NCBI GenBank assembly: GCA_000934665.2
Contig: JYFJ02000754.1
Coordinates: 1-64,000 of the forward strand
Reading direction: 5' to 3'
Source: Catajapyx aquilonaris
Lineage: Eukaryota
DNA: 64,000 bases
Position numbers and translations under genes: made by a program. A model generated the notes under the pieces. It was given only the letters and a program-made list of their open reading frames with translations. It ran no database searches and was not told the origin of the DNA. Below are positions 9,852 to 64,000 of this stretch, in pieces. The number at the start of each line of letters is the position of its first letter. Within the stretch, counting starts at the first letter, position 1.

Positions 9852-10023
9852 GTAAGTAAAGGCGAGGTGGGGAAACTTGCACTAGGTCGGTTGGGGACAG
9901 TCTGGGTCTGGCTTGCATCGCACTGCTTCACTATTAATAAAATTATTGTGTGTGGATGGCATTGCGGCTCAGGCAGTGTTTCCACATTGGGCAGGCGGGG
10001 TTGCTATTTCGTTTTAAGTTTAA

Positions 10024-10177
10024 CCGTTTGATGCCTACGGACATCATATGATGTCCGAGCTTACATTGCTGGAGGGCCTAAGGACATCATATGATGTCCT
10101 GAGATTTGCCCTGCCAACTTGGGGGAAACTCCGGCCCTGGGGAAATGCAATCCCTCGAAAACTCCGACATCAAAGGG
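10024..10177. mobile_element. piggyBac-type MITE (154 bp)
   Basis: TTAA on both sides (10020-10023, 10178-10181) and termini ccgtttgatg / catcaaaggg. Two copies of the perfect 18-bp palindrome ggacatcatatgatgtcc lie at 10039-10056 and 10082-10099. Confidence 0.8.
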
Positions 10178-10378
10178 TTAAAGACATAATTAGAGCAAGA
10201 GCTGGCTGTACAGTACAGGTATAAGTTGCCACTGAAAATATGCCACCTTCTTCATCTGGTACCCCCAACTCCTCTTCGTCTGGCATTTTGTGGGGGGTAC
10301 TAGGCAGCCATGTTGGAGCTCGTGTCTTCTGATTGGTCTCTTTCCCTTGAGGCCCCTCCTCCTTCCCCTCAGATCAAG

Positions 10379-17364: not shown

Positions 17365-17960
17365 CAGGGTGTCCCACTACCACCCGAACCGGGAAAATGG
17401 CGCACAATTGGTAAACCACTTAATGTAGGGCGATGAAATTTTACGGGTACATACCTTGGTCTGTGACAGTAACATATTGTCATAGAAGATGCTGAAAGTG
17501 GCCCCCGTTTGCGTCCAAGAAAGTTTGCACACGACGCTCTATGTTCGCGAAAGTGCAGGCCAACATCTCGGGAGTTATCCCCTCAGTTGCGGCACGGATA
17601 TTTTCCTGCAGTGCTGGGATAGTTCTTGGTTTGTTTTTGTGGACCTGTCCTTTTAGGTAACCCCACAGGAAATAATCCGGTGGAGTTAAAGCGGGTGATC
17701 GTGGTGGCCAAATCCCCATGGAAATGACTCTGCCTGGGAAGAAGGAATTGATGACGGCCATGCTGACCCTCGATGTGTGGCATGTTGCTCCGTCCTGCTG
17801 AAAGTAGCCAAATCATGGATACAAGATTTGACGGAGGCTTCCGGCCACCAAACTTCTTCACGAATTCCACTTGACACTGCTTGAATGACTGGGTTCTCCA
17901 GTACGTGCGCACCAGAAACACGCGCTCTTCCAGAGTGTAGCGATACAGGGGATGGAAGCA
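17365..17960 (-). mobile_element. Internally deleted Tc1/mariner element (HTH plus C-terminal part of the catalytic domain)
   Basis: HTH-like YTLEERVFLVRTYW...FGGRKPPS and WPPRSPALTPPDYFLWGYLK...NGGHFQHLL*. One TIR, TA|cagggtgtccc, is at 17363; the other TIR was not found. Confidence 0.85.
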
Positions 17961-18203
17961 ACTGATGTTTTTAGTGCTAGTTTTTAAACCAATACTACAG
18001 TATGTCCTGCTGATAGTGATCACAAAGTCACCATTTGAATATTTCATAGCAATACAACATCCTATTCCACTGGCATAGGGCAGAGGTCTAATGCAAGGAA
18101 GACGTAAGAAAAACATTGGGTACAAGTGGTAATATCTATAATTATTATTTTGCGAATTAATTTAATTAATTTATATTGGCAACTGGATCAATTTTATCCA
18201 GAG

Positions 18204-26100: not shown

Positions 26101-29100
26101 CGAGAGCACAACCACGGGTGAGCTTCGTTCGACTTGATAACTTGAGTTGATAACTTAAGTCGTCGTCTTTTTTTTTTTCAGCATTTGCTTCCAGTTCGAT
26201 TACATGTCGGACAAAGTGAGCCACCTTCCGGAGACCACCGCCGAGCTGGTTGAAATGATAGCGTATCTGGCTCAGTCGCAAGGGGATGTGGCAGGGCCGC
26301 TCAGAGAAGCCATCAAGACTTCGGGGACCAATCTCCTCTTCCTCTTGGATTACGCCGAGCTCACACGTCAGTAATAGCCTTCTCTTATTTTTTTTTTACG
26401 TATCTGACAATTACCGAAGCGGTGCCATCCACGCATTTGGATGATTGTCGTTTCAGCGGACGATATTGCGCTGAATGTACGTGTGAACCAGTGGCCCCGC
26501 GAGATGCTCTCCGTGTTCGAGCTGTGCGGAAACCGCCTGCGCCACAAGCGAGACCAGGTGGAGGAGGCCCTTCGCAAGCGGATCCTAGAGCTGGACGAGA
26601 ATCTGGAGGTCATCAATATGGAGCTGGACGTGTTCAAGAAGAAGGATCCGCCCGTGATCACCACCGAGGAGCTGGCCTTGAATGCTCAGAAGGCGGACGA
26701 GCTCGGGGAGAAGCTTAAGCTGGCCCAGGATGAGATGAACGTAAGTTCTGCCCATTTTGATGGGAGTACATGCAATGATTGTGTCGCACTTGCAGCACAT
26801 CAACGACGAAGAGGGCCTGCTGGAGTTTCCGCACACGCCCTTCACTCTCCTCGGGAACATGATCACTACCCTGGAGCCGTACGACAAGCTGTGGCACACC
26901 TCGCACGACTTCAACGTCAAGTCCGAGCTGTGGCTCAACGGGCCCTTCCGCGGCCTGGACGCAGAGGCGATCGAGGAGGACGTGGAGGGGATGTGGAAGA
27001 CGGCCTACAAGCTGACCAAGGTGTTTGCCGACCAGCCCGGTCCGAAGAGGGTGGCCGACCTGCTCAAGACCCGAGTAGAGAAGTTCAGGCAGTACCTCCC
27101 TCTGATGCACATCATCTGCAATCCGGGGATACAGGACAGGCATTGGTCAATTGTGAGTTTTGATCCCTCCCCCAGCCAAGATCGACCTGCTCTTAGCAAT
27201 ACTGATCGTGGATTATATTTTTTTTGGCAGATGAGCGACATTATGGGCTTCTACACGAGACCTTCCAAGGACGCTTCCCTGGCCAAGATGCTTGAGACCG
27301 GAATGGCCAAGTTCGTAACCCAGCTGGAGGACATTAGCCAGGCCGCGACTAAAGAGTATTCGCTGGAGCGGAACCTCAAGAAGATGAAGACCGAGTGGAA
27401 CGACATCAAGTTTGAATGTGTGCCGTACAGGTCAGTTCGCTGCTCCTGCTTCGTACAGCAGAACCCCTATTATTATTATTATTATTATCGGTCACCCATT
27501 GGACACAAAATAGGTGGGATCATCCGAAGAGGGGAATTTTAATGAAACAAAACAAAGAACATGAAATTGCGGTTTTATAAGAAATCATGAAGTATTTATC
27601 CTTTACTGTACCGTACTTACAATTTAACTAGGGCAATTTATGGAACGAATGTGGTGGTACATTACACTAATTGACGAGAAAAATATATTTAATATAGAGC
27701 GGAATGGTTGGATAATCAGTGCTCTTTTGTAGCTTCGTACACACCAGTTGTTGTTACATGCGATTGAATTTGACTATCTTTTTTTCTCTCAATGCCAATG
27801 TGCAGGGACATGAACAACAGGTATGGCCTCCTGCTTTTCCGTGCTTTAGGCCGTGTTTACATGCAATCGATTTGATCAGCGATGTACAGCTATGAATCAA
27901 TTGCTTGGGAGCGATTGGTACTTTCGCCTCAAACAATTTATTCTCAGGTAGTCGCTCAACATGTGAACGCGGCCTTATACCAATTGTACTTCCCGCTAAT
28001 GTGTGCATGGTGTCCGATAGGGAGACGGGCGTTTGCATCCTGTCCGCGGTAGACGACACCCAGACGATGCTGGACGACCACATCCTGAAGGCCCAGACGA
28101 TGGCCGGGTCTCCGTTCATCAAGCCTTTTGAGATGGAGATGGGCGCCTGGGAGCGCAAGCTGGTCCAGATGCAGGACATCCTGGACGCCTGGCTTAAAGT
28201 GCAGTCCACCTGGCTCTACCTGGAGCCCATCTTCAGCTCAGAGGACATCATACAGCAGATGCCAGCCGAGGCTCGGAAGTTCAAGCAGGTGGACCAGACC
28301 TGGCGGGTGGTGATGCAGCACGCAGTCAAGGATCCGCACGTGATAACGGCCACGGACCTGCCCAACATGCTGAGGAAGCTGACCATCGCGAACACCCTGC
28401 TGGACGAGATCCACACTGGGCTCAACGACTACCTGGAGAAGAAACGGCTGTTCTTCCCCAGGTTCGGCTGACGCTTCTGTTAATCGCGCCATCAGATTTT
28501 TACATGCCCTAATTGGCCAGGTTCTTCTTCCTGTCGAACGACGAGCTGCTGGAGATCCTCTCGGAGACCAAGGATCCACTGCGGGTCCAGCCGCATCTGA
28601 AGAAGTGCTTCGAGGGTATCAACCGCTTGGTGTTCACCCAGGCCATGGAGATCACCGGGATGGTGTCCGCAGAAGCAGAGGTCGTGAAGCTGTCCCGCTC
28701 CATACGGCCGCTGGACGCAAAGGGTCTGGTGGAGAAGTGGCTGATTCAGGTGGAGGAGCAGATGATCGAGTCTCTCCGGGACGTTATTGGCGACTCGATC
28801 AGGTCCTACGCCGTGCAGGACCGTACCGAGTGGGTCGTGTCTTGTCCCGGACAGGTCATACTCTGCGTGTCGTGCGCTTACTGGACCGCGGAGGTCACTA
28901 TGGCCATCTCGGTCCAAGATGGACTGCCGGTTGGTCCCGTGTGATTCCAGGTACGAGGGAGTCTGAGTATTAACCTTTCGGCAATTTCCGTCACAGATGT
29001 ACCGGGACAAATGCAGCGGACAGATCGACGACATAGTCGCTCTGGTGCGTGGAAAGCTCTCCGGGAACACTCGCATTTCGCTGGGTGCCCTGATCGTGCT

Positions 29101-32100
29101 GGACGTTCATGCGAGGGACGTGGTGGGGCAGCTGGCTAACCTGGGCGTGGGCTCCCCAGACGACTTCAACTGGATCAGTCAGCTCAGGTGCGGTGCTGGT
29201 TTACATGCGATTGTTCAGGGCGAAAGTAACAATCGCTGGCATGTAAACGCAGCAACGTTATATTATTATCAATCTGAGTTATACGAAAAATTTGATTCCT
29301 GTCGACAATGGTTGCCATGGCAATTCTCGTTAAAAACCGATGGATTTTATTAATATAAAACCTGCTCGGTTAAACCCTGCCTTGTATGACATTTGATGTG
29401 AAATGCGCTATTTGCAGGTACTACTGGATCCAGGAGACGCACGTCATGGACGTCCGCATGATCACCACTTGTATCCCGTACGGGTTTGAATACCTCGGGA
29501 ATTCCGGCCGTCTCGTGATCACTCCTCTGACGGACAGATGCTACCGGACCCTAATGGGCGCCCTGAAGCTGAACCTCGGGGGAGCTCCGGAGGGTCCTGC
29601 CGGGACCGGAAAGACGGAGACCAGCAAGGATCTGGCCAAGGCGGTGGCGAAGCAGTGCGTCGTCTTCAACTGCTCGGACGGTCTGGACTACAAGGTCAGT
29701 TGCCGCGAATGTCGACGGGGACATTCTCATGATGTGGGCTTACTCACTCCCGACAGGCTATGGGCAAGTTCTTCAAGGGTCTGGCCCAGGCCGGCGCGTG
29801 GGCCTGCTTCGACGAGTTCAACAGGATCGAGCTGGAGGTGCTGTCCGTCGTGGCACAGCAGATCCAGAGCATCCAGACGGCAATCGCAAGAGGCATGAAG
29901 ACCTTCCTGTTTGAGGGGACTATGCTGGCGCTCAACCCGACCTGCACCATCTTCATTACCATGAACCCCGGGTATGCATAAGTCGCCACTTGTTTTCCAA
30001 TTATATGCTAAAGTGCAGCTTGTTTACAGGTATGCCGGTCGACAGGAGCTGCCAGACAACCTGAAGGTGTTGTTCCGGACCGTGGCAATGATGGTGCCGG
30101 ACTACGCGATGATCGGAGAGATATCCCTGTACTCCATGGGATTCGTCGTCGCCAGGAGGTGCGTTCGCATGTTAAGACTGACCTGAACTTGCTAAAAATC
30201 TGCTCCCTTTTTTCCCGATCCGAAGCTTGGCTGGCAAGATAGTGGACACGTACAAGCTGTGCTCGGAGCAGCTGTCCTCCCAGCACCACTACGACTACGG
30301 GATGAGGGCGGTCAAGGCGGTGCTGACCGCCGCTGGCAACCTGAAGCTGAAGTACCCGGAGAAGAACGAGGCCCAGCTGGTCCTGAGGGCCATCATGGAC
30401 GTCAACCTCCCAAAGTTTCTGTCCCAGGACGTGCCATTGTTCGAGGGGATCATCTCGGATCTGTTCCCTGGAGTGGAACTGCCAGCACCGGACCGGGGAG
30501 TGATGCTGGCTTCTTTGGAGCGGCACTGCCGAGAGAAGTGCCTGCAGCCGACCCCGTGGTTCCTGGATAAAATTATTCAGGTATGCGGGTTAGTCGAGGG
30601 GTTTGTCGGCACTTGTGAAGGCCTCTGCACCCTTAGAAGTCCATTGTACACACTATAGTACCTCGAAGCGGAATTAGTTCAAAGTGCGCTGGATAATGAA
30701 TTGATTTCATTTGCCAGGTGTACGAGATGATCTTGGTCCGTTGGGGCCTGATGATCGTGGGTGAGCCCATGTGCGGGAAGACCTGTTCCTGGGCTATTCT
30801 GGCCGCAGCCCTGAACGAGATACACGCGAAGCCCGAGCTGGGGATGGAGGAGCAGCGGGTCATCCATCGGATAATCAACCCCAAATCCATAACCATGGGG
30901 CAGCTGTACGGCTCCTTCGACCTGGTGTCGCACGAGTGGTCAGACGGGGTCCTGGCCAACACCTTCCGGGAGTTCGCTTCCTCCCAGACGGAAGACCGCA
31001 AGTGGATCATATTCGACGGTCCGGTGGACGCAGTGTGGATAGAGAACATGAACACGGTGCTGGACGACAACAAGAAGCTGTGCCTCATGTCCGGAGAGAT
31101 CATCCAGATGTCGTCGACCATGAATCTCATATTCGAGCCTGCCGATTTGGAGCAGGCGTCGCCCGCCACCGTCTCCAGGTATGCCGCTTATTCGAAGCGT
31201 GGAACTTGTAGCTAATATTCGTGTGCGACAGGTGCGGAATGATCTACCTGGAGGGAGAGGCGCTCGGTTGGCGTCCGCTGAAGGACTCCTACCTGCAGCA
31301 GCTTCCCGACACGGTGACCCCGGACCAGAAGGAGACTCTGGAGGAGCTCTTCGAATGGCTGATTCCTCCTTGCATGTTCTTCATACGGCGGGAGTGCAAG
31401 TGCTTCCTCAACACGTCCGAACTGCATCAATTCAGGGTAAGTTATTGTTACGGGAGCGCTACGATCACACTGATCTCATCTTGTGTCCGCAGTCGTTTAC
31501 CCGGTTGTACACGTGTTTGCTGATGGACGAGAAGGGGACCATCGCGGCTCTCAGCATAAACTGGCTTCAGACGTCCTTCCTCTTTTCGATCGTATGGGGA
31601 ATTGGGTCGACCCTCACAGGTCAGTTAGATATGTTCTCATTGACATACAGAACAGAAAAGCTAACGATGCATTTCCGTGCGGCAAGGCGACGGCCGGCTG
31701 AAGTTCGACGCGTTCCTGCGTGACCTGCTGTCCGGCCAGCTGGCAGAGCATCCCAAGCCGAAGTGCTTCAAGCTCGGGAAAGCCCAGCTGTTCCCAGAGC
31801 GAGGCGTCGCATGGGACTTCTTCACGGACCGCAAGAACAACGGGCTGTGGGTCAACTGGCTGGACACCCTCGAGAAGGGGAAGACCCAGCTTCCGCCACC
31901 GACTGCCAAGGTGAACGAGCTGATCATCCCGACCACCGAGACGGCCAGGCAGGCATTCCTGCTTCAGACGCTGATGGCGATCCACGCGCCGATGCTCTTC
32001 GTGGGACCCACCGGAACTGGGAAGTCGGCCCTTACCCTCAGCGCACTGGCCAGCTTGCCGAAGGACAAGTTCGTGGTGAACATCATCAACTTCTCCGCCC

Positions 32101-35100
32101 GGACGTCAGCGAACCAGGCACAAGACATGATCATGAGCAAGCTGGACAGGTCAGATCTCTCTCGACTTATTGTGAAAGGCGCACGTCTTGAACTGTTCTT
32201 TCTGCAGGCGTCGCAAGGGCGTGTTTGGACCTCAGATCGGGAAAACATGTATCGTGTTCGTGGACGACCTGAACATGCCCCAGAAGGAGATCTACGGGGC
32301 ACAGCCTCCCGTGGAGCTCCTGAGGCAGTGGGTGGACCATTCCCACTGGTACGACCGGAAGGACACCTCCAAGGTCGAGCTGGTGGACCTCTACTTCCTG
32401 GCCGCCATGGGACCTCCCGGTGCGGGTGCTAACGAGATCTCGGGAAGACTCACCCGGCACATGAGCGTGATGAGCATCGACTCCTTCAACGACGAGACGC
32501 TCGGGAAGATCTTCACTTCCATCGCGGACTGGCATTTCGCAAAAGGGTTCGACTCAAACGTCAGCAGATGGGGAAGGGTGAGTGATCCTGGTTGAATCGA
32601 GGACGACACTTAATTTGGTCCTTTTGTCACGTGAGCGATTTGATCAATTTGATGCACTTTCGATTCGATTTGAGCTGAGTGTTGAAATCACAGTTGTTTG
32701 TAAGCGAAACGCGATGGTTACATTCGCTCTAGACAATAGGTCTCTATGCTAAGCTGCATATGCATTATCAGTGCTGTGCATCGCTGAGCGAAAGTAACAA
32801 TATATTTTCACCCCAAACAATAGGTCTCATCGCTGAAACATTGCTGATAAATCGCTTGCTTGTAAACGCGGCTTTATTTCATTTTATTTCATTTTGTACC
32901 CCGGTTCTCAGACCATAAATAATCATGAAATCACATGTAAACACGGCCTTATGTCCAGTAGATGGCAATGAAGTTAATTAATTTTTTCGTGTGTTTCCCA
33001 TTGCAGAATGTGGTCCAAGCGACGCTTTTGGTGTACAAGGCTGCCATGGACAAGTTCCTTCCGACCCCGATGAAGTCCCACTATGTCTTCAACTTGCGAG
33101 ACTTCTCTCGAGTTATACGCGGCGTCCTTCTGGTGCCGGCCACACACATGCCGGAGTCGCCAAAGCTCTTCCGGCTGTGGATCCACGAGGTGTACCGTGT
33201 GTTTTACGACCGGCTGGTGGACGACAAGGACAGGCAGGTCTTCTTCGATATTGTGTACAAGGTGGTGCAGGACATGTTCAAGCAGGACATGGGCAACCTC
33301 CTCCAGGCCGTGGTGCCCATGGGGAAGAAGCTGAAGGACGACCACGTCCGAGGCGTGATGTTCGGAGACTACATGGTGATGGACACGGAAACCAGGATTT
33401 ACGACGAGGTTGAGGACCTGGACCTCCTCGTTGACGTGAGTTGTTGCGATGCCCTCGCTGCCAATTGATGCGTTAACCCATCTCCTCTCTGACCAATAAG
33501 GTGATGGAAGCTTATCTGGAGGAGTACAACACGGTGCATAAGACCCCGATGGATCTGGTGGTCATGTTCCGGTTCGCGATAGAGCACGTCAGCCGCATCA
33601 GCCGCGTCTTGAAGCAGGACAACGGCCACTGCCTGCAGGTCGGGATCGGGGGGAGCGGGAGACGCACCTGCACAAAGATGGCCACGTTCATGGCCGGGTA
33701 CGAGCTGTATGAGATCGAGATCACCAAGACGTACGGGATGAACGACTGGAGGGAGGACCTGAAGCTGCTCCTCAAAAAGGCCGGAGCCGAGGGGAAGCAG
33801 ACCGTATTCCTACTGTCGGACACCCAGATTAAGGACGAGGCCTTCGTGGAGGACGTGAACGTCATCCTGAACACGGGGGACGTCCCCAACCTGTACGCTG
33901 GGGACGAGAAGGCGGAGATTCTGGAGAAGATGCAGGTGGGGTAGTACCTCTTAAATGTAGGGTGTAATGTCCCAATAATTGATGCTGCCGTTCGTTGCAG
34001 TCGTGAAATTCATCGACGAGATTTAAGCATTAACTCCTGAAATGTTTCAGTACGCATACATTTTTGTGTGAGAGATTATTCAGACTTTGGATTCAAATTA
34101 GACGTTGATGCATATTTAAATTTTAGGCAAAAGTGTACAGATTGCGCCGTTGCTTGCAGCTTAGAGCGAACTGCGTCTGGGTGTCTTTCAATTCGCTTCT
34201 TTTGCAGCTGATGTTTTAAATGCTAGACGACCGATTTGGGCAGGTAATGTTACATGTTTATGTGTACAACTTATTAGAGCAATATGTTTTATGTGGCAAT
34301 GTGTGTCGCAAATTTTACTGATGCACTCTGTATGTTCCATTGAGAAGGAGTTGCTTGACGCGGACGAGGTGAGTCTCGTTTCATGGTGCTCTGTAGTTAA
34401 ATGAATTCTGCATGGCATGCTAATGTAGGAGTAATTGTGGCGGAGAGGAGCTTCCTTTTTTTTTTTTTTCTGAGCGTAACTGTCATGTTGTAAAAAAAAA
34501 GTAGCACTGGAATGCTATTCAGCTCTTGATCAACTGTAGTGCTGATGGGCTTTCCTTTCGTTCGCACAGACAGCTGCAAGTGCTGCGCGCAAAAGCGACA
34601 CCTCCCCGATGGCCCTGTACAACTTCTTCATCGAGCGAGTGAAGGCCAACCTCCACATGGTCCTGGCTCTCTCCCCGGTTGGAGACGCCTTCCGTACCCG
34701 CCTGCGAATGTTCCCTTCCCTGATCAACTGCTGCACCATCGACTGGTACATGCCGTGGCCAGAGGACGCCCTGCAGAAGGTGGCCGAGCGGTACCTGAGC
34801 GGGGCCCAGGAGGACAAGAAGAAGAAGGCGAAGAAGGGCGGCGGCGGGAGCGAGGTGGAGCTGGGGCTGTCTACGGACGTGGTGAAGAGATGCGTGAGCA
34901 TGTGCATGGAATTCCACGTCGCAGCCAGAGTGCTGTCGGAGAGGTTTCTCCAGGAGCAAGGGAGGCACAATTACATCACGCCCACGTCGTACCTCGCTTT
35001 GATACAGGTAATTAACGTGACGGCGCCTTTCCCGAAATTGCTTCAACGACTCTTTGCCGCCAGACGTTCAAGACCATGCTGAGCCGAAAGCGCCTGGAGC

Positions 35101-38100
35101 TTCAAACCCTTCGCAGTCGGTACGTGGTGGGGCTGGAGAAGCTGGACTTTGCCGCCTCCCAGATCAGTGTGATGCAGGTGGAGCTGACAGAGCTGCAGCC
35201 CCAGCTGATCCTCACCTCCGCCCAGACCGAGGCCTTGATGGTCAAGATCGAGCAGGAGACGGTGGCTGTCGAGGCGAAGAAGGAGATGGTGGCAGCGGAT
35301 GAAGCCGTCGCCAACGAGGCAGCTGCCGCAGCCCAGGCCATCAAGGTCTGTTATTGTCACCGTGCGTATGCGAACATTGCGGCTGATTCTCTTAATCCCA
35401 GGATGACTGCGAGAACGACCTGGCCGAGGCCGTCCCCGCGCTGCAAGCTGCCGTGGGGGCCCTGAACACCCTGAAGCCGCAGGACATCACGATGGTCAAG
35501 TCCATGAAGAACCCTCCCGGAGGAGTGAAGCTGGTGATGGAGGCCGTCTGCGTGATGAAGGGTTCCAAGCCGGAGAGGAAGCCCGATCCAGGCGGCTCCG
35601 GAAAGATGATCGAGGACTACTGGGGCCCCTCGCAGAAGCTGCTGGGGGACATCAAGTTCCTGGACTCCCTGAAGATTTACGACAAGGACAACATCCTGCC
35701 GCCCATCATGAAGAAGATCAGAGAGAAGTACGGTTTAAGTACAGGCTGCGTTCACATGTGAGCGATTCGCTGAGCATGGGGCGAATCGCTCAAATGTAAG
35801 CGCGGCATAAATTGACACCCATCTTTTTCCAATAATTTAGGTACGGAAGCCGAGTAACGATCTTTGCACCAAACAATAGGTTTAATTGCTCAGCGAATCT
35901 GTCATATGTAATTCCGTTATTGCTAGTTTTCCGGCCAGTTTTTCCGAATGTTGTCTTTTTTTTGATCCTTCATGTGAGCTGAGTGATGAAAATCTATTGT
36001 TGCTTTTGCCCCAAACATTGGCTTCATTGCTCAGCGCAGCTCAGGGAATTGCTCACGTGTACTATAGTAAGAGCGACATTATAATGTGTCGACCAATTGA
36101 AACCCGCCATCATTGCCTTTTCAGGTACATAAACCACCCGGACTTTGAGCCGAGCCAGATCCGCAACATCTCTGCCGCCTGCGAGGGCCTCTGCAAGTGG
36201 GTCCGCGCGATGGAAGTGTACGACCGGGTGGTGAAGATAGTCGCGCCCAAGAAGGCCAAGCTGGCGGAGGCTGAAGGGGAGCTGAGCCAGCAGATGGAGA
36301 AGCTGAACGAGAAGCGGGCGGAGCTCCAGAAGGTGACGGACCAGCTCCAGGCGCTGAACGACCACTTTGCCGGGATGACCCGGAAGAAGAAGGACCTGGA
36401 GGACTCCATAGAGATATGCAGCCAGAAGCTGGACAGGGCGGAGAAGCTGATCGGCGGCCTCGGAGGGGAGAAGGAGAGGTGGAGCGAGGCTGCCAAGCTG
36501 CTGGGGGAGAGGATGGACAACATCACAGGGGACGTGCTGATCGCCGCGGCTGTCGTGGCCTACCTGGGAGCTTTCACCGTCGACTTTCGGAACGTGAGTT
36601 TCAGTAACATTGTTTTTTTGAGCGTTTGTACGACCCAGCGTGTTTTAGGATTGCATCGAGGACTGGATGAAGCTGTCGGCCAAGCAAAAGATCGCATGCT
36701 CCTCCAACTTCTCCCTGATCACCACCCTGGGCGAGCCGGTGAAGATCCGCGCCTGGCAGATCGCAGGCCTTCCGGTGGACAACTTCTCCATTGACAACGG
36801 GATCATCGTGACCAACGCCCGCCGCTGGCCCCTGATGATCGACCCGCAGAACCAGGCCTCCCGCTGGATCAAGAACATGGAGAGGCAGAACCAGCTGTCC
36901 GTAATCAAGCTGACCGACTCCAACTTCCTGCGGGTGCTGGAGAACGCCATCCCTTTCGGACGGCCCGTCCTGTTGGAGAACGTCCGGGAGGAGCTGGACC
37001 CATCGCTGGAGACCATACTGCAGAGGGAGACCTTCAAGCAGGCTGGAATGACCGTCATAAAAATCGGGGACAATGTCGTGGAGTACTCCCAGGACTTCAG
37101 GTTCTACATCATCACCCGACTGAGGAACCCGCACTACCTGCCCGAAGTGTCGGTTAAGGTTGGTTCGAGAGTTTTGGCCAACTTCGATTAGAAATTACAT
37201 GATTTGACACACGCCTTGCAGGTGACACTCCTGAACTTCATGATAACCCCGCAAGGCCTGGAGGACCAGCTCCTGGGGATGGTGGCGGCTAAGGAGAAGC
37301 CCGAGCTGGAGGAGAAGAAGAACCAGCTGATCCTGGAGAGCGCCAACAACAAGAAGCAGCTGAAGGAGATCGAGGACGAGATCCTGAGGGTGCTGTCCGC
37401 CTCGGAGGGAAACATCCTCGAGGACGAGACCGCCATCAGGATCCTCTCGTCTTCAAAGGTGAGTCCAATCGCAACGAGGGCACATCTCATTGCAGTAATG
37501 TCAGAATCTAGCACATGTCTCTCGTTGTATGAATTTCAATCAGTCGATCAATCGACTATACGTATTTCATTAAAAGCTATAATCCCAATTTCTGCCCAAT
37601 CAATGTTGAGCTCTCTGCGAATCATTGAGATAATTTTGGAGTCTGTTTGCTTTCAAGACTTGCAAAGCGTTTGTACAAATTTCAATGATTTTCAATTGCT
37701 AGTGATAAGGCGTCTTAACAAGCTTTTGTTCATAGAGCAACGTGCTGTCGATGGAGTCACACTCATTGAGTCGGGCTATGATGACACGCTATGCAATTAA
37801 AATGTACACAGTATTTTAATTAGTCATATTAGACTAATAATAGTCTGCAATTGTTGTCAAGTGTTTTTTGTGTGTGTACATTTCGAGCATAAAGTGATCA
37901 TTGCCTCGACTGCAGTTCGCATATGCTGTACGTCAGTTTATTCACACAAGTCCCCCCCTCTTTTTTTTATCCCTTTTTTTTTTTGGATCTACCAACTGCA
38001 GAGCCGGGTGTGTATGACTATTAAATCGAAGTGACATATTTTTTGACATCCCCGCCTTTTTCTAGCCCTTGACTTGGATAAAGCGGGGGGATGCATATAA

Positions 38101-41100
38101 TAACGTCCTGCACAGTTATACTCTGTCCTCTTGAATCTGTCCTCTTCATATATATATTATACCTTCGTATGTTTCCTGCAACATAGCGGCACATTCTACG
38201 TCTGCCGCTGCTGCTACTCTACTTCAATGGGTCACCCAATTTCTCTGCACTGAACGACACTGGCCGTTTGCTGGTGAAACTTCAATGACATTATACTTCG
38301 TCATGTCTACACCTAACGCTGCATCTATATACTCTCCATGACTATTTTTCAACTATACTATTCACTACAAATTATTGACTTCCGTCTTCCAGAGGATATG
38401 TCCCACAAGTCGAGGCGCACATTTTTTCTGGGAGGACTGTACTTGTTAATTAACTTTGATTGAACAGTGTGAATTGCGTGTGAGCGATTCGATCAGCGCC
38501 AAACGCTTCCAAAACGCAATTATTACTTTTTCCCCAAACTATATTGGTTTCATGGCTCAATCGCTGACGAAACCAATTTTCCTGATTTGGCTTGAGTACA
38601 CGAATGGCCAAGACTTTTGGGACAATTAACTCCTCTCGCCTTATTATTCTTCTGGACTGCACGTTATCATCGCGAAGCTGCATTGCTGTAACATGTGTTC
38701 TCTTGATCGACGCACAAAGGTCCTGTCCGAAGAGATCGGGGCGAAGCAGGAGATAGCCTCGGAGACAGAGAAGGAGATCGACTATACCCGTAACGGCTAC
38801 CGTCCCGTGGCCGTCCACTCGTCGACTCTGTTCTTCTGCATCTCCCAACTGGCCAACATCGATCCAATGTACCAGTATTCGTTAGCCTGGTTCATCAACC
38901 TTTACCTTCAGGTGCGTTTGATTTACGTTGGGACCGACAACTCCTTTGTTCGTCTTAAATATGTGCCCAGTTCTTTCCGCTTCCTAGGCCATAAGCACGA
39001 GTGAGCCGTCGGACAACCTTATGAAGCGAATAAGAATCCTGAACAACCACTTCACCAGCAGCATCTACCGCAACGTGTGCAGGTCGCTGTTCGAGAAGGA
39101 CAAGCTCCTCTTCTCCTTCCTGCTCTGCATCGAGATCATGCGGGCCCAGGGAAAGATAGACGAGCCCAACTGGGAGTTCTTCCTGACGGGCGGGGTTGGA
39201 CTGGACGTCACTCAGGAGAACCCGGCGTCGGAGTGGCTCACTGACAAGTCCTGGGGGGAGGTGGTTCGGGCCTCGGACCAGCTGTTCGACCTGTCCGGAT
39301 GGAAGACGCACGTCTCGCTGTTCCCGGAGGAGTGGAGGGAAGTTTACGAGCATCCCGAGCCGCAGGTGAGCCACGTTGTTACTGTCACTGTTGCATATTT
39401 TAATGATGGCGAGCAATATTCCAGACGGCCAAATATCCGGACGAATGGGACGACCTGAGGGGTCTGGACCGGCTGGTGATTCTGCGTTGTCTCAGGCCGG
39501 ACAAGGTCGGTGCTGCGGCGACGATACCGCCACAAGTGTTGGTCTTAACTGCTTTGTTTTCAGGTTGTTCCCGCCGTGCAGGACTTCGTGGTGAACAACT
39601 TGGGTCGGCAGTTCCTGGACCCGCCTCCGTTCGACCTGAGCAGCTGCTACTCCGATTCCACCTGCGCCGTACCTTTAATCTTTGTGCTGTCCGCAGGCTC
39701 TGACCCCATGGCCGGTCTGCTCAAGTTCGGACAGGACAAAGGTTTTGTCGGGGAGCAGATCCAGCGGATCTCACTGGGACAGGGGCAGGGTCCCATTGCG
39801 GAGAGGCTTATAGACGCAGCGACCAGAGACGGCACCTGGGTGGTGCTGCAGAACTGCCACCTGGCGGCCAGCTGGATGGGGAAGCTGGAGAAGATCTGCG
39901 AGGAGGACCTCCCGCAGGATTTCACCAACCCGGAGTTCAGGCTGTGGCTGACAAGCTACCCGTCTCCGGACTTTCCCGTGTCCGTGCTGCAGGTGAGTCG
40001 TTCAGCCATTGTTGTAAAAACTCTCTGACGTTCCTTATTGATTGTGCTCTTGCAGAACGGCGTGAAGATGACGAACGAGGCTCCGAAAGGCCTCCGAGCG
40101 AACCTATTCCGCTCGTACACCCGCGATCCTCTGAGCGACCCGACCTTCTTCAAGTCTTGCACCAAGACCTTAGAGTGGCAGCGAATGCTGTTCGGCCTCT
40201 GCTTCTTCCACGCACTGGCGCAAGAGCGGACCAAGTTCGGCCCCATGGGCTGGAACATCCCCTACGAGTTCAACGAGTCCGATCTGTCCATCAGCATCCA
40301 GCAGCTCAAGATGTTCCTGGACGAGTACGAGGAACTTCCCTTGCTGGCCGTCACCTACCTCACCGGGGAGTGCAACTACGGCGGGAGGGTCACGGACGAC
40401 AAGGACAGGCGGTGCCTCATGTCCTTGCTCTCCATCCCCTACTGCCCGGAAATTGTCAACACCGATAAGTGAGTGTTGCTGTCTACTCTCTTCCATTGCC
40501 TTAACAAGAGAGTGAACAGTGCCAACAAAAAGAACATTGTTGCATTAGGAACTCTCCATGGGAACTTTGTGATTGATTTACAATAATAACCTGTGATCGT
40601 TTCGCTCCCAGCTACGCCCTGTCGTCGTCGGGCATCTATCACGTGCCAGGTGATGCGGATTATGAGACGAGCTTGGCGTACATAAAGAGCCTGCCCCTGA
40701 ACCCGACCCCGGAGGTGTTCGGTCTCCACCAGAATGCCAACATCACCAAGGACAACAAGGAGACGCAGGATCTGCTCAACGGCCTCATCACCACCCAGCA
40801 GTCCGGAGGGGCAGGTGCGGACACAGGCGGAGGACCCACGCCCACGCAGGTAGCCGATGAGTTGGCCGGGGACATCCTGAAGAAGCTGCCGCCTAATTTC
40901 GACCTGGACCTGATAAGCGAGAGGTTCCCCGTGTTGTACGAGGAGTCGATGAACACGGTGCTGAGGCAAGAGCTCATCAGGTTCAACCGCCTGCTGCAGG
41001 TGGTGCGCAAGTCGCTGGTGGACGTCCGCAAGGCCCTGCAGGGACTGGTGGTGATGTCTGGCCCGCTTGAGGAGGTGTTTCGAGCCCTCCTGGTCGGCAG

Positions 41101-42392
41101 GGTCCCAGACGCCTGGTCGTCAAAGTCCTACCTCTCCCGCAAGCCCCTCGGAGGATACGTGGCCGACCTTCTGGTCAGGCTCACCTTCCTGCAGGACTGG
41201 ATAAATGCAGGCCACGCTCCAGCCGTGTTCTGGCTCAGCGGCTTCTACTTCACCCAGAGCTTCCTCACGGGTGTGACTCAGAATTTCGCCCGGAAGCACA
41301 AGATTCCCATCGACATCCTGGGGTTCCAGTTTGAGGTGACCGAGTACGAATCGACGATGCATCGCGAGGAGGTTCCGCCAGACTCGACTCCTGTGAAGGT
41401 TGGTTATTATTGCTTATTGTGCACTTGCTACTCTTGCAACCGCAGCGTTTACATGCGAGCGATTCGACGGATCCAATTGTTTGGGGGGTGAAAATAGTTA
41501 AAAATCGCATTTCGCTCTCAACAGTGTTGTTTTCAAAGCTCTGCGAAGATCATTGCTGCAGATCGTTGATCAAAGAGCTCACATGTATACGTGGCTTTTA
41601 AAAAGTGTTAAAGATGGCCTCTATTTATTACATGTGAATACCTGAAACATGGCGATAATAAGTCATATTTTGTTATGAGTTGACTGTAAACTGGAAGCCA
41701 TTAAAAGAGCATCACTTTTTAAATGCTCTTGATGCTTTGTAGCAACAAAAAAGCATCACGAGAGCATCAAAAAGTGATGCTCTCTAATGGTTTGCGGTTT
41801 ACAGGTAAAGTACAATCTACTACAGATTAATTATCGTAGAAAAATTGCCCCAATTTGGGATAAAGCATGCTTCAAACCCTTCCGATATGTCTTCACGTAG
41901 CATGATATTCATTAGTGCACTTAATTATGGCTTTTGGTGTCGAAATGACCATGTTATTTGTTTTATAATTACAAGCCGCAGGAAGATTCAGTGTACATTG
42001 AAGTGAGTAGTATCGTGCAGTGATTAACACTTTAATGGTAGAGCTTATGCTGCAATGTATGTCACATGTCTAATGTCTGTTCACTCAAATCCCAGGGCTT
42101 GTTCCTGGAGGGAGCACGCTGGAGTAGGGAGGCGACTGTTCTGGCCGAGTCCTATCCAAAAATCCTCTTTGATCCTGTGCCGATAATGCTCCTGCGGCCT
42201 GGAATCAAGGCGAATTTCTTCCCTGCTCCCTCGTACAACTGCCCGGTGTACAAGACCAGCGCCAGGAGGGGGATCCTCTCGACCACCGGCCACTCGACCA
42301 ACTTTGTGCTCTGGATCCTCTTGCAGTCGGACAAGCCAGAGAGGCACTGGGTCAACCGGGGTGTGGCCTGCCTCTGCCAGCTGGACGACTGA
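23159..42392 (+). CDS. DNAH3: Axonemal inner-arm dynein heavy chain, DNAH3-like, ~42 exons
   Basis: Four P-loops are present: [32 protein letters not shown]. Other motifs include [25 protein letters not shown], the stalk [20 protein letters not shown] and the C-terminus [15 protein letters not shown]. The junctions I checked are GT-AG and in frame. DNAH3 versus DNAH7/12 is judged from recalled motifs, and the start ATG is tentative. Confidence 0.93.
27849..27974. mobile_element. PIF/Harbinger-type MITE in a dynein intron
   Basis: TIRs ggccgtgtttacatg / catgtgaacgcggcc with TTA on both sides. Related decayed copies lie at ~29195-29255, 32630-32950, 35743-35810 and 41440-41597. Confidence 0.75.
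41684..41804. repeat. ~120-bp foldback (hairpin) element in a dynein intron
   Basis: ctgtaaactggaagccattaaaagagcatcacttttt pairs with aaaaagtgatgctctctaatggtttgcggtttacag, and there is an inner tgatgcttt/aaagcatca pair. Confidence 0.8.
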
Positions 42393-57600: not shown

Positions 57601-60600
57601 AAGTGGTGATAATAGACCTACTCGACACACTCCACCCATTTTGGTCTGTATTCATGATTAGTAATGCTTCATGTTCTTTGTATAAAACTGTGTTGAATCT
57701 TAGAATTAGATATGATGCAGTGCATAATGTAGCTTTGCTTGACGAAATTTATGGCTACATGCCTTTGATTTAATACATGTGGAAATGGAAAAATACTCAA
57801 CACCACGTGGGTGGCTACCCATTCATCGTCGGTGGGGGCACTTTTGAAGCTATGTTAAGGTGTATTAAAGTTAGCATAGAAAATTGGAGTAGTCCTCTTA
57901 TGTCGCTGGTTACTGGATGGTGCATGGCATTCGTCCTAATCGCTTTCATCTTCCAGTCTTTCAATTATGTTGATTGTAAGATCACTTGATAATGTCTCAC
58001 TTAGCACAAGGAACCATCTGTTCACAATTGATTCATATATATTTTGCAGAAGCTGCTGCCACGTGTACACACACCCAGCGCCATTGTCTTAAATTGTCAC
58101 ATTACATTTGTATATTATATTGCATATCCATGATGCTCTTTTCCCCCTCCCCCCAAGCACAAGGAACCATTTCTTAAATGAATATTAATTTGACCTTTTT
58201 AATGTGCTTGCTGGAATCTCGTGTTATGTAAGAGTGAACAGTTCCGCCTAAAATGAGAGCCCCATGGTTTTGAAATGTGCAGGTAATGTCAATGAAATGA
58301 TGGGCGTTGGGAGAAACATTTCGTCTGGTGGGAATTGTATGCATGGTAATTAACAGACTTTTTTTTGTGCATTTTCATAAACAATGCACATGCATCTCCA
58401 ACTCCAGGTAGCTCGACGGGAACTTCCTTCAAGGCCCCAGATAAAAACTGATCAAACAATGATCGTCTGAAACAGACTGAGTGTTGGTCATTTACAGAGT
58501 TGAAATAACTCCCAAAAATATTTTTAATTGATAAAAATAAATAAATAATGCAGTTCCCGGCCAAGAGCAATGTGCTGGGGGGGGGGGGGGAACGGGTTAA
58601 TTCCCTAATAGAGGNGAGAGGTAGGTCATCTGATGGGGCTAGTAAGTGAAAATATGATTTTTAATTCGCTTCTTTCTATGTTATGTGTCACCTTGTCACT
58701 CAGCCGCGAAGATAGCTTTCTCGTCATGATACTGGGTGATGCAGTAATTTGCATATGAAGGTATTGTTGACAAGGTTATATTAATTTTTGTGTGTGTGCT
58801 GGCAGTTAGTCGTTCTGCACAGTACCGACGACGGGGTCTCTGCATTCATGGACTTATTCTTTTTGCTCTCATCATCGATCCATGGGTGGTGCTGTTCACC
58901 TAATACTCTTGCTCTGCGTAATTTGAAGCTGTTTTAACATCAAGGGGAACCTTGTCCATATGGAAAATGTCTTGATTGCTGTTCACTTTTGCATCGACTG
59001 TGAAGTTGACATGGTGCAACTATGGCGCGCCTCCAAGTCTATGCAAAATTCATGCTGTACTTCGCTCGTCAAATCGCCCCCATGTAAGCACACGATGGTG
59101 TCAGATTTATGACATCTGCTGCCCTTGGTTGATTTCTGTGATGTGTCCAACTCGCCAAGCCAAGAAGATTTTTGAGGCCTGTAACCAATGCGTCCTTTTC
59201 TATGAACGTCAAGGTTGGTTGAACCGGATTCCTCTTCGTCTTATAACCTTCTCCATCCAATGACTTGAAATGTACTGTTGAGTGACGTTCAATAGTCGTG
59301 GTAGTAGGAATTGTCTTGTAAGAGAAATGATTTCGCACATTCCATTCAGATCGAATAGCTACTTCGGGTCTCTTCAGTTGGATTTGATGCTGAAGGGGTG
59401 GAAGAGTTATGCTTTCTTTGGGCCTTTCCCAACACTCCAGTCTCATTGTTTGATCTTTTTCAGCAGGACAGTATGAAATATATAACTTTACATACCGGAA
59501 CTAATAACGGGATCGTACAGTGGTGGCATCACAAACACATCTGAATGTCTCAGTCTGAATAGGACCGTATACTTAGCAGCTCCACATTCTTCTTCGTTGA
59601 AAGACCATTGAAAGTGGAGCCCCATGGTCATGCAATGTTCTGGCAATAGTAATGACATAATGTTGGTCGTCGAGAGGAACATTTCGTCACATTGTTATGT
59701 CATGTTATGGTGGTGTTTGGATATACAAGGAAATAGTGTGTTGGTGAATTTTCATGCACAATGCACATTTGGGGTGCTAAATGTCACTCTCAGAGGTTAC
59801 GTACATTGAAATTGTACAAAATGATTTTGAATCATATTTTTCTTGTGCCGTATTTTGTTGGTGAAAGTTCTCGGTTGGGATAGCTCTAAAATGCTGCAAC
59901 ATAAATCTTGTTATTTTCTTCCACTCGCTACTGGGTGAGTCAGAGTCTGCCTTAATAATTGGGATTGGGTGAGCGTTCTACAAGTCGGGTATGGTTCCAG
60001 AAATTCATCACGTCTCGAGAGCTCTGGGCTATATATTTATAACTTTCATAAAAGTAGTTCGTACGTATCAATCTTTTTGGCAAGTTGGTTGCAATGTCAT
60101 GGATTACAACTTAATGAAGGCTCCTGCGTTGAGCAATGCACAGAAGTGTAATGTATACAAGATGTCATACAAGGTGATTCTCTTGAATCCCAACCCAAAC
60201 ATTCCTCAGTAACTTTTAATTATTGTATGGTTTGTACCTCCCACCTTTACAATCCACTCTGCTTTACAAATTCTTGGGGTTGTCACTCACACATTCAATG
60301 AAGACTGCACATTGAGGGCAAAAAATTTATTCGTATACATCAGCCTGGAGAGTCAACTCAGTCAAGATAATCCTTAGCTTTACCATTTCCCACCATATCC
60401 CACAACAACAACTTTTAGGATATTGCCCTTTTATTTTGTTTTAGTACCTCCTTCCGGAGGGGGGGGGGGGGGTCTTCTGCTGCCAGCGCCGCCTGCTGAC
60501 CCCCATGCCTGCAATATACATCCAATATTACACTCTGTAGGTACTGTACATGCATACCTGCAGGCATCATTCACACTCATGTGTAGTATGTACTCACCCA

Positions 60601-61842
60601 ACAACGTGTCATCGTTGTGGGGGCAGCACTGGCGGCACCTGCATGGGTCCAAATTGGACCATGCCCCCCCTTGGCCTGCGCAAGTACAAGTACAAATTAA
60701 GTTAGTATGCGTTGCGGGTGCAAGTCCGAGTGATGACTTGACGACTTGACCAGCATCCTTCTGCTGGGCTGACTTACTTCTGCTGCTGGTGTACTCTTTT
60801 GGTCCATGATGCTGGCGGGTGACAACTGTAATGCAAGAGAACTTGGTCCGTTATTTGATTTCACACAATGCGGTTGAATCATCCAGTTAGTTCCATTGAT
60901 CCCAACTGGATTGATCCTAGGTGTCATGAAATTATCAAAAAAAAAAAAAAAAAAACATGGACCGAATCCAGTTGTTGCATCGACAGTTACATGATAGCAA
61001 GTGATGGGCCCCCAAATCCTGCCCCTTCACCATCAGACCCTTCACAGTGATGGCTCCCTAGCGGCCTATTATCCGACGATCATAAGAGTGAACTTTTTGG
61101 GAAATCCTTCCGCCGAAGGGCGGTCGTGATCTGCCCCGAAAGTAGTACTCATTTTTTTTTTCCATACGGACAGCAGGCAGATGCCGGGCACGGTGGGAAA
61201 TATGGACAGAGGGGTAACAGCGTGGGAAATAAGGCAGTTAGGGTGCAAAATGCGTGGGAAATGTGAAATGTTTCTCAGATTGATTAATTATACAAGTAGA
61301 TACATGATGCTAATATTGTTAGGGCTTTCTTCAGCAACTTTGCAATAAATGGCGAGCTGGTGGCAGTCGCCTCAGCAAACATGTCGTCAGCTGCAGTGAT
61401 GGCCTTAAGATAGTTTCTCCGCAGTGTTTGAGAGGAGGCTGGAAAAGCACAAAAATTTGTCCTGCTTGGAACGAGCAAGCACAGTTTGCAGCACAAAATA
61501 GCCTAGGCTCAAAAAATGTCCTGGCCAGCATTTGGTGCAGAATGTGATAATAATATGCATAACTTGGATGAAATGAGATTGGACATTACTTTGTGGTAAT
61601 TGTATTTTATTTTACTTCATAACAATTTGTGATAAGCAACGTACAGTAAGGTGGTAACATTTGCAATGCAGAAGTGAATGATAAAAACGTAGTGGATTGA
61701 GGAGGTGGAAGGTCGAATGCGGGAAGTATTGGACCTTGTGCACCTTTTGTTAGATGGGATGTTGATGCATCTTACAGAGCATCATATAGTACATGTAGAA
61801 GTCTTAAACAGGAGCACTGTAAAAAAAACTAACCCAAAAAAG

Positions 61843-63743
61843 TTACCCAACTTCATCGTCACTGGCGTTAAGGGGCACTGCCAGTACATCATCATCATCG
61901 CCAGTCATCACTAAGCTATCATCTAATACCCCAATACTGTTATATTCAACTTCCCTCCCCATCTGGTCTGCCTCTTCTCCATCACTCTCCTCACTGTCTT
62001 CATCACTGTCATTTTCACCAATCCTGATCACCAGGGGCTTGACTGCCTCATCTATGGCGACCTCTGCACTCCAACATTTGTCCATCAGCATCTGGACATG
62101 CTGGACTTCATTGGCCCACATTTCTGGAGTGATGTGTTTCAGTGCTTCTGCCCACACCTTCTTGGTTTGTGCCTCTCCAAACCCCTCCACTCCACTGTTC
62201 TCTGCATAGTACTTCTTGGCCACAGACCACACGAACTCAATCGGATTGAATTGACAATGGTAGGGGGGAAGACGTACCACTTCATGACCTGCTTCCCTGA
62301 CCATGTTATCCACAGCGTATTTCTTGTAGCCTTCCTTGTGCATCTGGGCCAGGTGAAGCAGCTCGATGCGGAGAGCATCCTCCGCGAAGGGTATGCGGTG
62401 GTCCCTCAGCCAGTCTGCCAGCTGCTTCTTGTTCCATTTGGTGGCAGGGAGAGGTTCATGAAGCATCTGTACAAAATACAACAATGATTAATGTAATGTT
62501 GATGGGTGATACCAAACTTATAACAAACTTATCCTTCCGGTAAACAGTTACATTGAGGCGGTGAAACTGACCCTAAAAGTCTAACTTGTGCTCTCTCCCA
62601 TGCAAGTCTTTGGACAAGGTGATTATATATTGTGCCATCTACGTACCGAGTGGTATGGAGCATTATCCATGACCAGGAGAGTCCCAGGCTTGAGTTTTGT
62701 CAGGAGCTTCTTGAGCCACTCGATGAAGGTGGGTCCATCCATCTGGTCATGGTAATCTTCACTTCGCTTCTTCGTAGTGAAAAGACGTCCAGCATCCTCC
62801 ACAAAGCCGTGTTCATTGCCAGCATGAATCACTATGAAGCGAGGTCCGTCTGATGAAGGCCTCTTGATGCAGGATTTGGCAGTTCCATCCTGCCAGGCGT
62901 AGGATGATGTTGTATTCATGTGGATCCAGGTTTCATCCATGTAGACGACTGGCCGAGGATTGGGCAGCTTTGCGTTGTTCCTCATTCGCCGGAGAAATGC
63001 AATTCTCTTCTCAGCTATGTCCTGCCTCTCAAGCAGCAACAAGCGGTTGTTCATCCGCTTCCATCTAAAGCCTAGCTTGCGCAGCACCGTACGCAGCGAA
63101 TCCTTTCCCCCAGTGAAGGGCACCTCTGAATTCTTCACGGCTGCAAGGATCTCCTCCATCTTGGTACGCTTTCTCTTCGCGTACATGTCATACACGATCT
63201 GGAAAAATGTGAAATTGTACTAATTGTTGTAAATTTATCAGAGTGAAAGAAAGCTAACTAAATATGGGTCCTTAATGTTTCACCTAGTGCTTGGGTGTAA
63301 ATGAGTAGCCCAATAAGATTACCAGAGGTTGCATGATGCAAATTTTTGTACAGTACATGAGTATAGGAGTGAAGGCAAAACTGGCTCACCTGTCGGATGC
63401 GGCTCAAATCAAAATCATCGAGGTCAGTCTTGGGTGCCATCCTCTTACGCTTCTTCCCTGGTGTGGACCTCTCCTCAGAATCCACACTACGGTAGCGCTT
63501 CTTCATGGTAGACAGGCCCCCTTTGCTCAGGTTGACATCGCTGTCTGCTGCTTGGGTGATGGGAATGATGGGCTCTCCTTCTTCTCCTGGTTCATAAACC
63601 ACTCCACATTCTCGACGATCTTGAACGCCTGCGTACCGATTGCACTCCCGTGGAAGCTGTGAGGTGGGTTGCTGTCTGTCGTCTGGGTTGAGGGCTGGGG
63701 TCACCTGGGCTACGTTGCCGGCTGGGTTGCTGTCGGTGGACAT
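61843..63743 (-). CDS. IS630/Tc1/mariner-group transposase with DD82E spacing (Sailor-type), ~509 aa; exons 63743-63390, 63198-62647, 62466-61843
   Basis: VYMDETW (D1), LVMDNAPYHS (D2) and RLPPYHCQFNPIE (E), with 82 residues between D2 and E after splicing. Two phase-0 GT-AG introns join without stops. An HTH-like LRTVLRKLGFRWKR lies upstream of D1. Confidence 0.88.
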
Positions 63744-64000
63744 GACTCGCGTGGCTTGACAAGGGGGGAAGAGGTGGAAGACACGGGGTATGGGACACGA
63801 GATACGGGGGACTAATTTTTCAGGCGGAAGGACACCCAACGGAAAGGTTGCCAGCTACGGATAATTCTTCACAGCTTTTAATCGTTTCCTTGAATTCTTT
63901 AAAAATGGTTAATATCAGATTCGATAGCATGAACTGGTAAATAGTCAATTCAAGCAGGATGCTTCAATGGTTCAAGTGTAGGGCTCAAAATACGTCCCTA

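Follow-up and report, generated by a model that had tools for sequence, protein, structure and literature searches.

A predicted three-exon transposase gene of the Sailor (DD82E) superfamily with a degenerate first helix-turn-helix in Catajapyx aquilonaris

The locus and its gene model

Here we report a transposase gene of the Sailor (DD82E) type at the end of a 64,000-nt stretch of DNA from Catajapyx aquilonaris (assembly GCA_000934665.2, contig JYFJ02000754.1, positions 1 to 64,000 of the forward strand); this whole stretch is called the window, and all positions refer to it. The gene lies on the minus strand at 61843-63743 and comprises three exons, which were joined by script into an open reading frame (ORF) of 1530 nt, equivalent to 509 codons and a stop codon, with zero internal stops. 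An initial annotation, made from the letters of the window alone, had described an ORF of about 509 aa with two clean introns. This description holds: the frame is open, both introns are of the GT..AG type, and homology to relatives runs across the junctions. The parts of the gene are listed below (HTH, helix-turn-helix).

63390..63743, minus strand: exon 1, 118 codons, ATG at 63743; novel N-terminus, degenerate first HTH, STPGKKRKR (63467-63441), DDFD..IR
63199..63389, minus strand: intron 1, 191 nt, GTGAGC..CCAG, phase 0
62647..63198, minus strand: exon 2, 184 codons; second HTH, D206 (YMDETW), D296 (VMDNAPYHS)
62467..62646, minus strand: intron 2, 180 nt, GTACGT..ACAG, phase 0
61843..62466, minus strand: exon 3, 207 codons and stop; Sailor-type D-E spacer, E379 (NPIE), acidic tail

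Read-through of either intron meets stop codons, which in the case of intron 2 are in frame. An alignment with 15 relatives crosses both splice junctions without a gap and thus lends the predicted splicing the support of homology; we infer that the gene is spliced in this way in vivo. The closest relative of exon 2 (P0004, a protein of 210 aa) is 64% identical, and every other relative is at most 46% identical. The match to P0004 begins at the intron 1 junction and ends at the intron 2 junction, with the same HSV read-through. When an intron shared after the DNAxYHS block was sought among the 147 matches that reach the end of exon 2, the lengths of their C-terminal tails formed no clear peak. 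No second copy of the gene was found within the 64-kb window. The G + C content of the gene at third codon positions (GC3) was 0.59 versus 0.76 for pieces of a neighbouring dynein ORF, a difference of little weight.

Catalytic core and assignment to the Sailor superfamily

The predicted protein carries the catalytic residues D206, D296 and E379, with 89 residues from D to D and 82 residues from D to E, which confirms the complete triad and the exact 82-residue D-E spacing reported by the initial annotation. A Pfam search placed DDE_3 on exon 2 (E = 8.2e-07) and on exon 3 (E = 4e-07) and gave no match for exon 1. Among 1.84 billion representatives searched, 2593 relatives of exon 2 were recovered at E ≤ 1e-3; tightening the cutoff to 1e-10 and 1e-30 left 937 and 45. 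When 43 relatives of at least 430 aa were aligned, 38 had D, D and E in the columns of the gene (the exceptions were P0113, P0118, P0127, P0128 and P0145), and the D-E spacing of these 38 was 81-83 residues in 34 cases and exactly 82 in 17. The gene keeps 43 of the 44 columns that are at least 90% conserved in 31 relatives, the sole exception being a change from K to R, and 70 of the 90 columns that are at least 70% conserved, a share inside the range of its family members (0.73-0.91).

When prokaryotic genomes were scanned with P0004 as query, 30 loci were returned. One of them (L030) contains a 422-aa ORF (9632-10900) that lies inside RPGQ01000008.1:15119-16562, the range given in Table S6 of the Sailor paper for a DD82E Sailor of Desulfobacteraceae with a 422-aa ORF (Shi et al. 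2021; PMC8533490; cited here and below from the available part of its text and supplement). In BLASTP comparisons with this ORF, the identity was 33% for exon 2 (154 residues, E = 1e-25) and 29% for exon 3 (134 residues, E = 6e-17). The whole D-E spacer aligns to it with a single gap of one residue, and D206, D296 and E379, with positions read off the alignments, correspond to D182, D272 and E355 of the bacterial Sailor. Judged by its signature and by this homology to a named bacterial Sailor, the gene belongs to the Sailor superfamily, as had been proposed.

The Sailor superfamily is defined by a DD82E signature (range DD78E-DD111E), terminal inverted repeats (TIRs) of 18-1362 bp and TATA target duplications (Shi et al. 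2021; PMC8533490). The TIRs usually start with GT, GC or CC, the TATA duplication has the variants TACA and TATT, and the superfamily is reported to be absent from vertebrates (PMC8533490). Many entries of Table S6 have few copies and no TIR, or ends given as unknown (PMC8533490). Compared by eye with the transposases in Figure S4 of the same paper, the protein described here shares with them the blocks DETW, GKG.R.I..HAG, DYH..M and MDNA.YHS, followed by K..L..WL, RLPPYHC..NPIE and an acidic tail. It also resembles most species of Table S6 in its apparently low copy number (PMC8533490). It differs in the presence of two spliceosomal introns, the only use of the word 'intron' in the available text of the Sailor paper being the title of a reference (PMC8533490). 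Further differences are the degenerate first HTH and the lack of any TIR or TATA duplication found in the window. The basic motif PGKKRKR (residues 94-100) and the acidic tail, to which the initial annotation had drawn attention, are both present, yet they are family-wide features (consensus TPxKxR and an S/D-rich end). Six words of the protein were also looked up in the available part of the Sailor supplement; five were absent and one occurred in Sailor-Hydele, a weak comparison in view of the partial text.

A search of 5.8 billion proteins with exon 1 (118 aa) gave 10 candidates of near length, none at E ≤ 0.1. Separate searches found three proteins at near lengths with exon 2 and two at longer lengths with exon 3. 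A sequence search of the PDB with exon 2 gave 0 matches at E ≤ 1. An AlphaFold2 model of exon 3 had a mean pLDDT of 80 and matched no PDB fold at E ≤ 0.001; the catalytic domains of Sleeping Beauty and SETMAR appeared at E values of 1.2-1.9.

The first insert of the D-E spacer (exon 3 residues 13-43; 62338-62430) reads K..L..WL....I.......K.EL and is predicted to form a helix, a long loop and a second helix, with block pLDDT values of 97-98. Sub-threshold Pfam matches among the 31 relatives were Ish1 in eight (best E = 0.01) and HeH/LEM in six (best E = 0.013). In the available text of the Sailor paper, no domain was found in the D-E inserts (PMC8533490). The modelled insert may be a DNA-binding motif of the SAP/HeH type, a lead to be read together with the insignificant result of the fold search.

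A scan of metagenomes yielded two loci with relatives of 40% and 34% identity. The former (L001, on a metagenome contig) is an intron-less open frame of 416 aa. A 50-nt inverted pair flanking it (271-320 and 2155-2206) was considered as a clean TIR and rejected, since it contains the tRNA T-arm-like sequence GGTTCGAATCC and has no adjoining TATA. The 30 prokaryotic relatives (L003-L032) have identities of 30-39%, apart from one short match of 47%. Their hosts are mostly metagenome-assembled genomes of Desulfobacterota-type, gammaproteobacterial, Bacteroidales and Planctomycetota affiliation, two of which have three loci each. This spread is wider than the nine bacterial species in the available text of the 2021 Sailor paper (PMC8533490).

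First helix-turn-helix, element ends and copies

The initial annotation had regarded the ORF as fully intact and undamaged. This part of its description did not survive comparison with the family: helix 1 of the first HTH is off-frame, and helices 2-3 can be recognised in none of the three frames. The comparison used an N-terminal profile built from 75 relatives, whose own scores are inflated because they are members of the training set. In the frame of the ORF, the family profile matched only from EEGEPIIP on (profile positions 65-130, 32.3 bits), and profile positions 34-73, which hold the first helix, matched the +1 frame just upstream (8.8 bits). As a control, the 1086 tile-frames that make up the 64-kb window were scored: the true match ranked first, the off-frame helix 1 second (7.9 bits), and the next reached 2.5 bits. 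With a sub-profile of helix 1, the off-frame peptide (63679-63575) scored 9.5 bits, with 10 of the 75 members lower, and the ORF frame gave no score. The features concerned are as follows.

63575..63649, minus strand: helix 1 remnant of the first HTH, readable solely in the frame +1 to that of the ORF; no family match in the ORF frame itself
63734-63723 and 63676-63665, minus strand: direct repeat of 12 nt, present twice at a distance of 58 nt and encoding ..DSNP.. in two different frames

The appearance of ..DSNP.. in two frames marks the upstream frame change, and the downstream return to frame lies in a purine run at about 63590-63575. A 22-nt GT..AG stretch of exon 1 was considered as a frame-correcting mini-intron and rejected, as it is too short and would leave the second frame change unfixed.

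Helices 2-3 have the same length as in the relatives and score 4.6 bits, below all 75 of them (minimum 10.7); they were not found in any alternative frame. The adjoining segment (STPGKKRK..DDFD..IR..) scores 54.9 bits, above 60 of the 75 relatives. In the paired-like domain, the second HTH and the linker are therefore conserved, whereas the first HTH is incomplete. The same contrast is seen in the conserved columns, of which 2/12 are kept before STPGKKRK versus 85/119 after it (Fisher p = 3e-4); the share kept before STPGKKRK is 0.38-0.92 among family members. By these profile and column comparisons, the first HTH is degenerate and the catalytic half is whole-looking. In related transposases, the first HTH subdomain recognises the ends of the element, according to the introduction of the Sailor paper (PMC8533490).

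Contigs from the only four DNA runs that contain the stretch were compared with the window; all four come from one study and one sample, the latter probably that from which the window was assembled. Over 63235-63995, the contigs of 4/4 runs have 0 other letters and 0 gaps. This agreement makes an assembly error unlikely, with the qualification that the runs may be the assembly's own data.

The element ends were sought on both sides of the gene. The initial annotation had noted a weak inverted similarity between 61068-61114 and 63823-63865. Relative to a null of random 71-nt pairs drawn from the window, its score of 12 compares with a mean of 7.3 and is reached by 1.75% of the pairs; because the place had been chosen freely, this is no better than chance. 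Local alignment of 59900-61500 with the reverse complement of 63750-64000 revealed no TIR (score 21 versus 20.4 for the null), and neither did a 20-mer scan of 60950-61843 against 63764-64000, in which the best match of 14/20 equalled the null maximum of 14-15 (30 shuffles). Upstream of the ATG the window holds 257 nt; on the other side of the gene, the TIR scan covered about 900 nt past the stop codon. The right end of the element is probably located beyond base 64000. A search of the window for duplications of TATA, TACA or TATT was negative; within 60029-64000, TATAG is confined to two plus-strand sites, 61785 and 63362, neither of which has an inverted partner. The 8-nt direct repeat CTTCACAG (61040 and 63869) was dropped as a candidate target duplication, being asymmetric to any inverted sequence and expected by chance. 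Two further features concern the ends and the copies.

61098..61266, plus strand: four TGGGAAAT motifs (61098, 61194, 61223 and 61255), with distances of 29 and 32 nt among the last three
61113..63863, no strand assigned: break points of a multi-copy form, a contig joint present in 4/4 runs that skips 2749 nt with the whole gene

The whole 64 kb contains nine TGGGAAAT matches against an expectation of 3.55, and the cluster, which lies in a region of raised contig depth, accounts for four of them. The cluster may represent a subterminal repeat array on the 3' side of the element. Two interleaved sets of short direct repeats occupy 61000-61266, namely GTGGGAAAT (61098, 61194, 61223 and 61255) and AGTGATGG.CCC-like repeats (61000, 61046 and 61125), and an inverted copy of the GTGGGAAAT motif lies at 60385-60392.

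In the unique left flank (58700-60095), the depth of contigs in the four runs, which is not the same as copy number, was 16.8, 32.6, 37.1 and 33.1; over exon 1 and its upstream region (63235-63995) it was 17.4, 34.7, 39.6 and 25.3, a single-copy level. Depth over 61215-63264 was 31.6-89.8, which is 1.2-3.0 times that of the flank, and the bins 61001-61354 and 63833-64000 had a depth of 85-368, several times single-copy. These values suggest a low copy number of the gene. Within 61215-63264 the contigs of the runs depart from the window at eight positions, and the two unique stretches show no difference. These disagreements between runs indicate that the sample contains the gene in two versions, which would be alleles or else separate copies. 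Five of the differences are coding (two synonymous, two missense and one stop); the last is T for A at 61913 in 2/4 runs, which turns codon 487 (L487, in the acidic tail) into a stop codon.

The contig with the joint 61113/63863 had a depth of 158-289 versus 17-37 in the unique flank. The shorter side of the joint comprises 33 letters at a likeness threshold of 80, a setting at which repeats can mislead, so the joint is a lead rather than a proof. From this one joint in one sample, we infer that the multi-copy form represents internally deleted, gene-less relatives of the same element. That TGGGAAAT motifs flank the left break point in both directions is more in keeping with a deletion in the short form than with an insertion at this locus. 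The situation resembles pairs of autonomous and non-autonomous (internally deleted, MITE-like) transposons in that the flank-joined form without the gene has several times the depth of the gene; it differs in that the short form is here a putative one, represented by a single joint in the contigs of one sample.

The gene is situated within a mosaic of repeats. In the contigs of the one DNA sample, very high-copy repeats lie at 59054-59230 (summed contig depth 621-1017) and 60116-60292 (1196-2078), compared with 17-37 for unique sequence, and the region also has a run of 19 A (60937-60955) and a run of 14 G (60459-60472). The single N of the window, at 58615, is possibly an assembly gap or an ambiguous base. 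Elsewhere in the window there are a 7tm_7 chemosensory-receptor ORF (4640-5710, E = 4.6e-12), a similar 7TM-looking ORF with no Pfam match (7430-8407), a DUF4817 helix-turn-helix ORF typical of mariner-like remnants (17583-18161), and ORF pieces of an axonemal-type dynein heavy chain at about 25000-41500, including AAA_7 and Dynein_C (E = 3.9e-71). The chemoreceptor and dynein sequences mark the host as an animal.

A probably crippled transposon copy or a possible host gene

Our preferred reading, held with moderate confidence, is that the locus carries an intron-bearing DNA transposon of the Sailor (DD82E) type, present in few copies, and that this copy has probably lost its autonomy. Transcription from the minus strand and two splicing events would give rise to a transposase of 509 aa, with a nuclear-localisation or AT-hook-like motif (TPGKKRK), an intact second HTH, an equally intact RNase-H-like DDE core with a long Sailor spacer, and an acidic tail. 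The first HTH, which in enzymes of the Tc1/mariner type reads the ends of the element, has its helix 1 out of frame and helices 2-3 diverged past recognition, and the protein would probably be unable to bind the ends of its own element. The copy is considered probably non-autonomous because of this ruined first HTH. Shorter, gene-less relatives of the element would exist in several genomic copies, as the contig depths and the joint suggest, and would be its deletion derivatives. The existence of P0004, with both exon-2 boundaries at 64% identity, supports an intron-bearing lineage, and the repeated flanks, the gene-less multi-copy contig and the stop-bearing version make us lean towards a transposon copy that is probably crippled, a third reading next to the active element and the domesticated gene of the initial annotation.

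Several points weigh against this reading. The window holds no detectable TIR and no detectable TATA, TACA or TATT duplication, so that the mobility of this copy is putative. The evidence for repeated relatives comes from depth, which does not count copies, from four runs that are one sample, and from a joint of 33 letters at 80%. Each of the two frame changes offsets the other, and they fall together within the first 170 nt of an otherwise clean ORF of 1530 nt; helices 2-3 are substituted at constant length, and the segment next to them is among the best conserved of the family. This contrast in constraint, together with the compensating frames, looks like long selection on the remainder of the protein, unlike the state of a freshly dead copy. 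Boundaries of exon 2 that are common to a 64%-identical relative would fit a conserved host gene as well. Part of the signal of a preserved ORF is due to ascertainment, because the locus was flagged for its open frame.

A second explanation, which we regard as unlikely, is that the locus is a co-opted Sailor-derived host gene in which the nuclear signal, the second HTH and the core would be under selection, the first HTH and the TIRs would have been shed, and introns gained. It would account for the contrast in constraint inside exon 1 (4.6 bits, below 75/75 relatives, and 54.9 bits, above 60/75), for the 43/44 highly conserved columns that are kept, for the compensating frame changes that hold 509 codons open, for the lack of a TIR found in the window, for the single-copy depth of exon 1 and its upstream region, and for the exon-2 boundaries common to P0004. 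It is opposed by the repeated flanks, the gene-less joined form at a depth of 158-289, the stop at codon 487 in a second version from the same sample and, weakly, a GC3 below that of the neighbouring host gene.

Domesticated transposases of the Tc1/mariner/pogo type, such as SETMAR and CENP-B, typically retain DNA binding, and their catalytic residues are impaired or lost. The gene described here resembles them in being a transposase-derived ORF with introns and no visible TIRs, and it differs in that the pattern is reversed, with the core kept and the DNA-binding module decayed, which also speaks against co-option. Moreover, published Sailor entries frequently combine few copies with a lack of TIRs (PMC8533490).

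A precedent with the same syndrome is provided by TLEWI of bivalves, which has 3-6 exons, a low copy number, no recognisable TIR or target site duplication, a DDE domain that is conserved, and an N-terminal PAI-type subdomain that is 'blurred' and less conserved than the RED subdomain and the DDE core (Puzakov et al., bioRxiv 10.1101/656579; cited from the available part of the text). TLEWI transposases have 322-378 aa and a DD36E signature, and co-option has been proposed for them (bioRxiv 10.1101/656579). The likeness extends to the introns, to the low contig depth (a weak point), to the lack of a TIR found in the window, and to an N-terminal subdomain that is weaker than the DDE core. The gene reported here has a DD82E signature and 509 aa and falls into another superfamily, so that TLEWI is an analogue of which it is not a member. 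By this analogy, the gene could be a Sailor counterpart of TLEWI, a spliced low-copy host gene with a decaying first HTH and a retained DDE nuclease, a proposal that we consider doubtful.

A currently active autonomous Sailor element, with an odd N-terminus that is functional or by-passed via another start and with TIRs outside the window, appears less likely than co-option. Such an element would be expected to have the open frame of 509 codons, the full triad, the canonical splice sites and a core as well conserved as in its family (70/90 columns at ≥70%, range 0.73-0.91). A near-identical second version with eight differences over about 2 kb is also consistent with it; the several-copy gene-less relatives could be mobilised in trans, and a right TIR could sit beyond the 257 nt that the window holds upstream of the ATG. 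This reading is opposed by the state of the first HTH, with helix 1 out of frame and helices 2-3 scoring below 75/75 relatives, since recognition of the ends is the role of this subdomain in related transposases (PMC8533490), and likewise no TIR was detected on the left side over about 900 nt past the stop codon.

An error of assembly or sequencing as the source of the N-terminal frame problem, with a canonical first HTH in the true gene, is very improbable: although the downstream frame change falls in a purine run (63590-63575) of a kind prone to length errors on some platforms, an artefact would need two separate frame changes, the contigs over 63235-63995 equal the window in 4/4 runs (possibly the assembly's own data), and helices 2-3 are unrecognisable in every frame, which an indel error cannot cause.

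The Sailor superfamily itself, described in 2021, is known, as are intron-split, TIR-less, low-copy ITm transposase genes in another group; the combination of introns, low copy number, no visible TIR and a weakened first HTH inside Sailor may be new. No domesticated Sailor was found in literature that pairs DD82E with domestication, judged by titles and the beginnings of abstracts, and the pairing of DD82E with 'intron' was rare in the same partial view of the literature searched. Under our preferred reading of a low-copy, probably crippled transposon copy, the locus illustrates that an open frame of 509 codons does not equal an intact enzyme. If the gene were instead a Sailor counterpart of TLEWI, a Sailor nuclease that is still catalytic would be serving the host in some role other than transposon movement, and the locus would be an early example of a host gene derived from Sailor, unusual in keeping its catalytic residues over its DNA-binding module.

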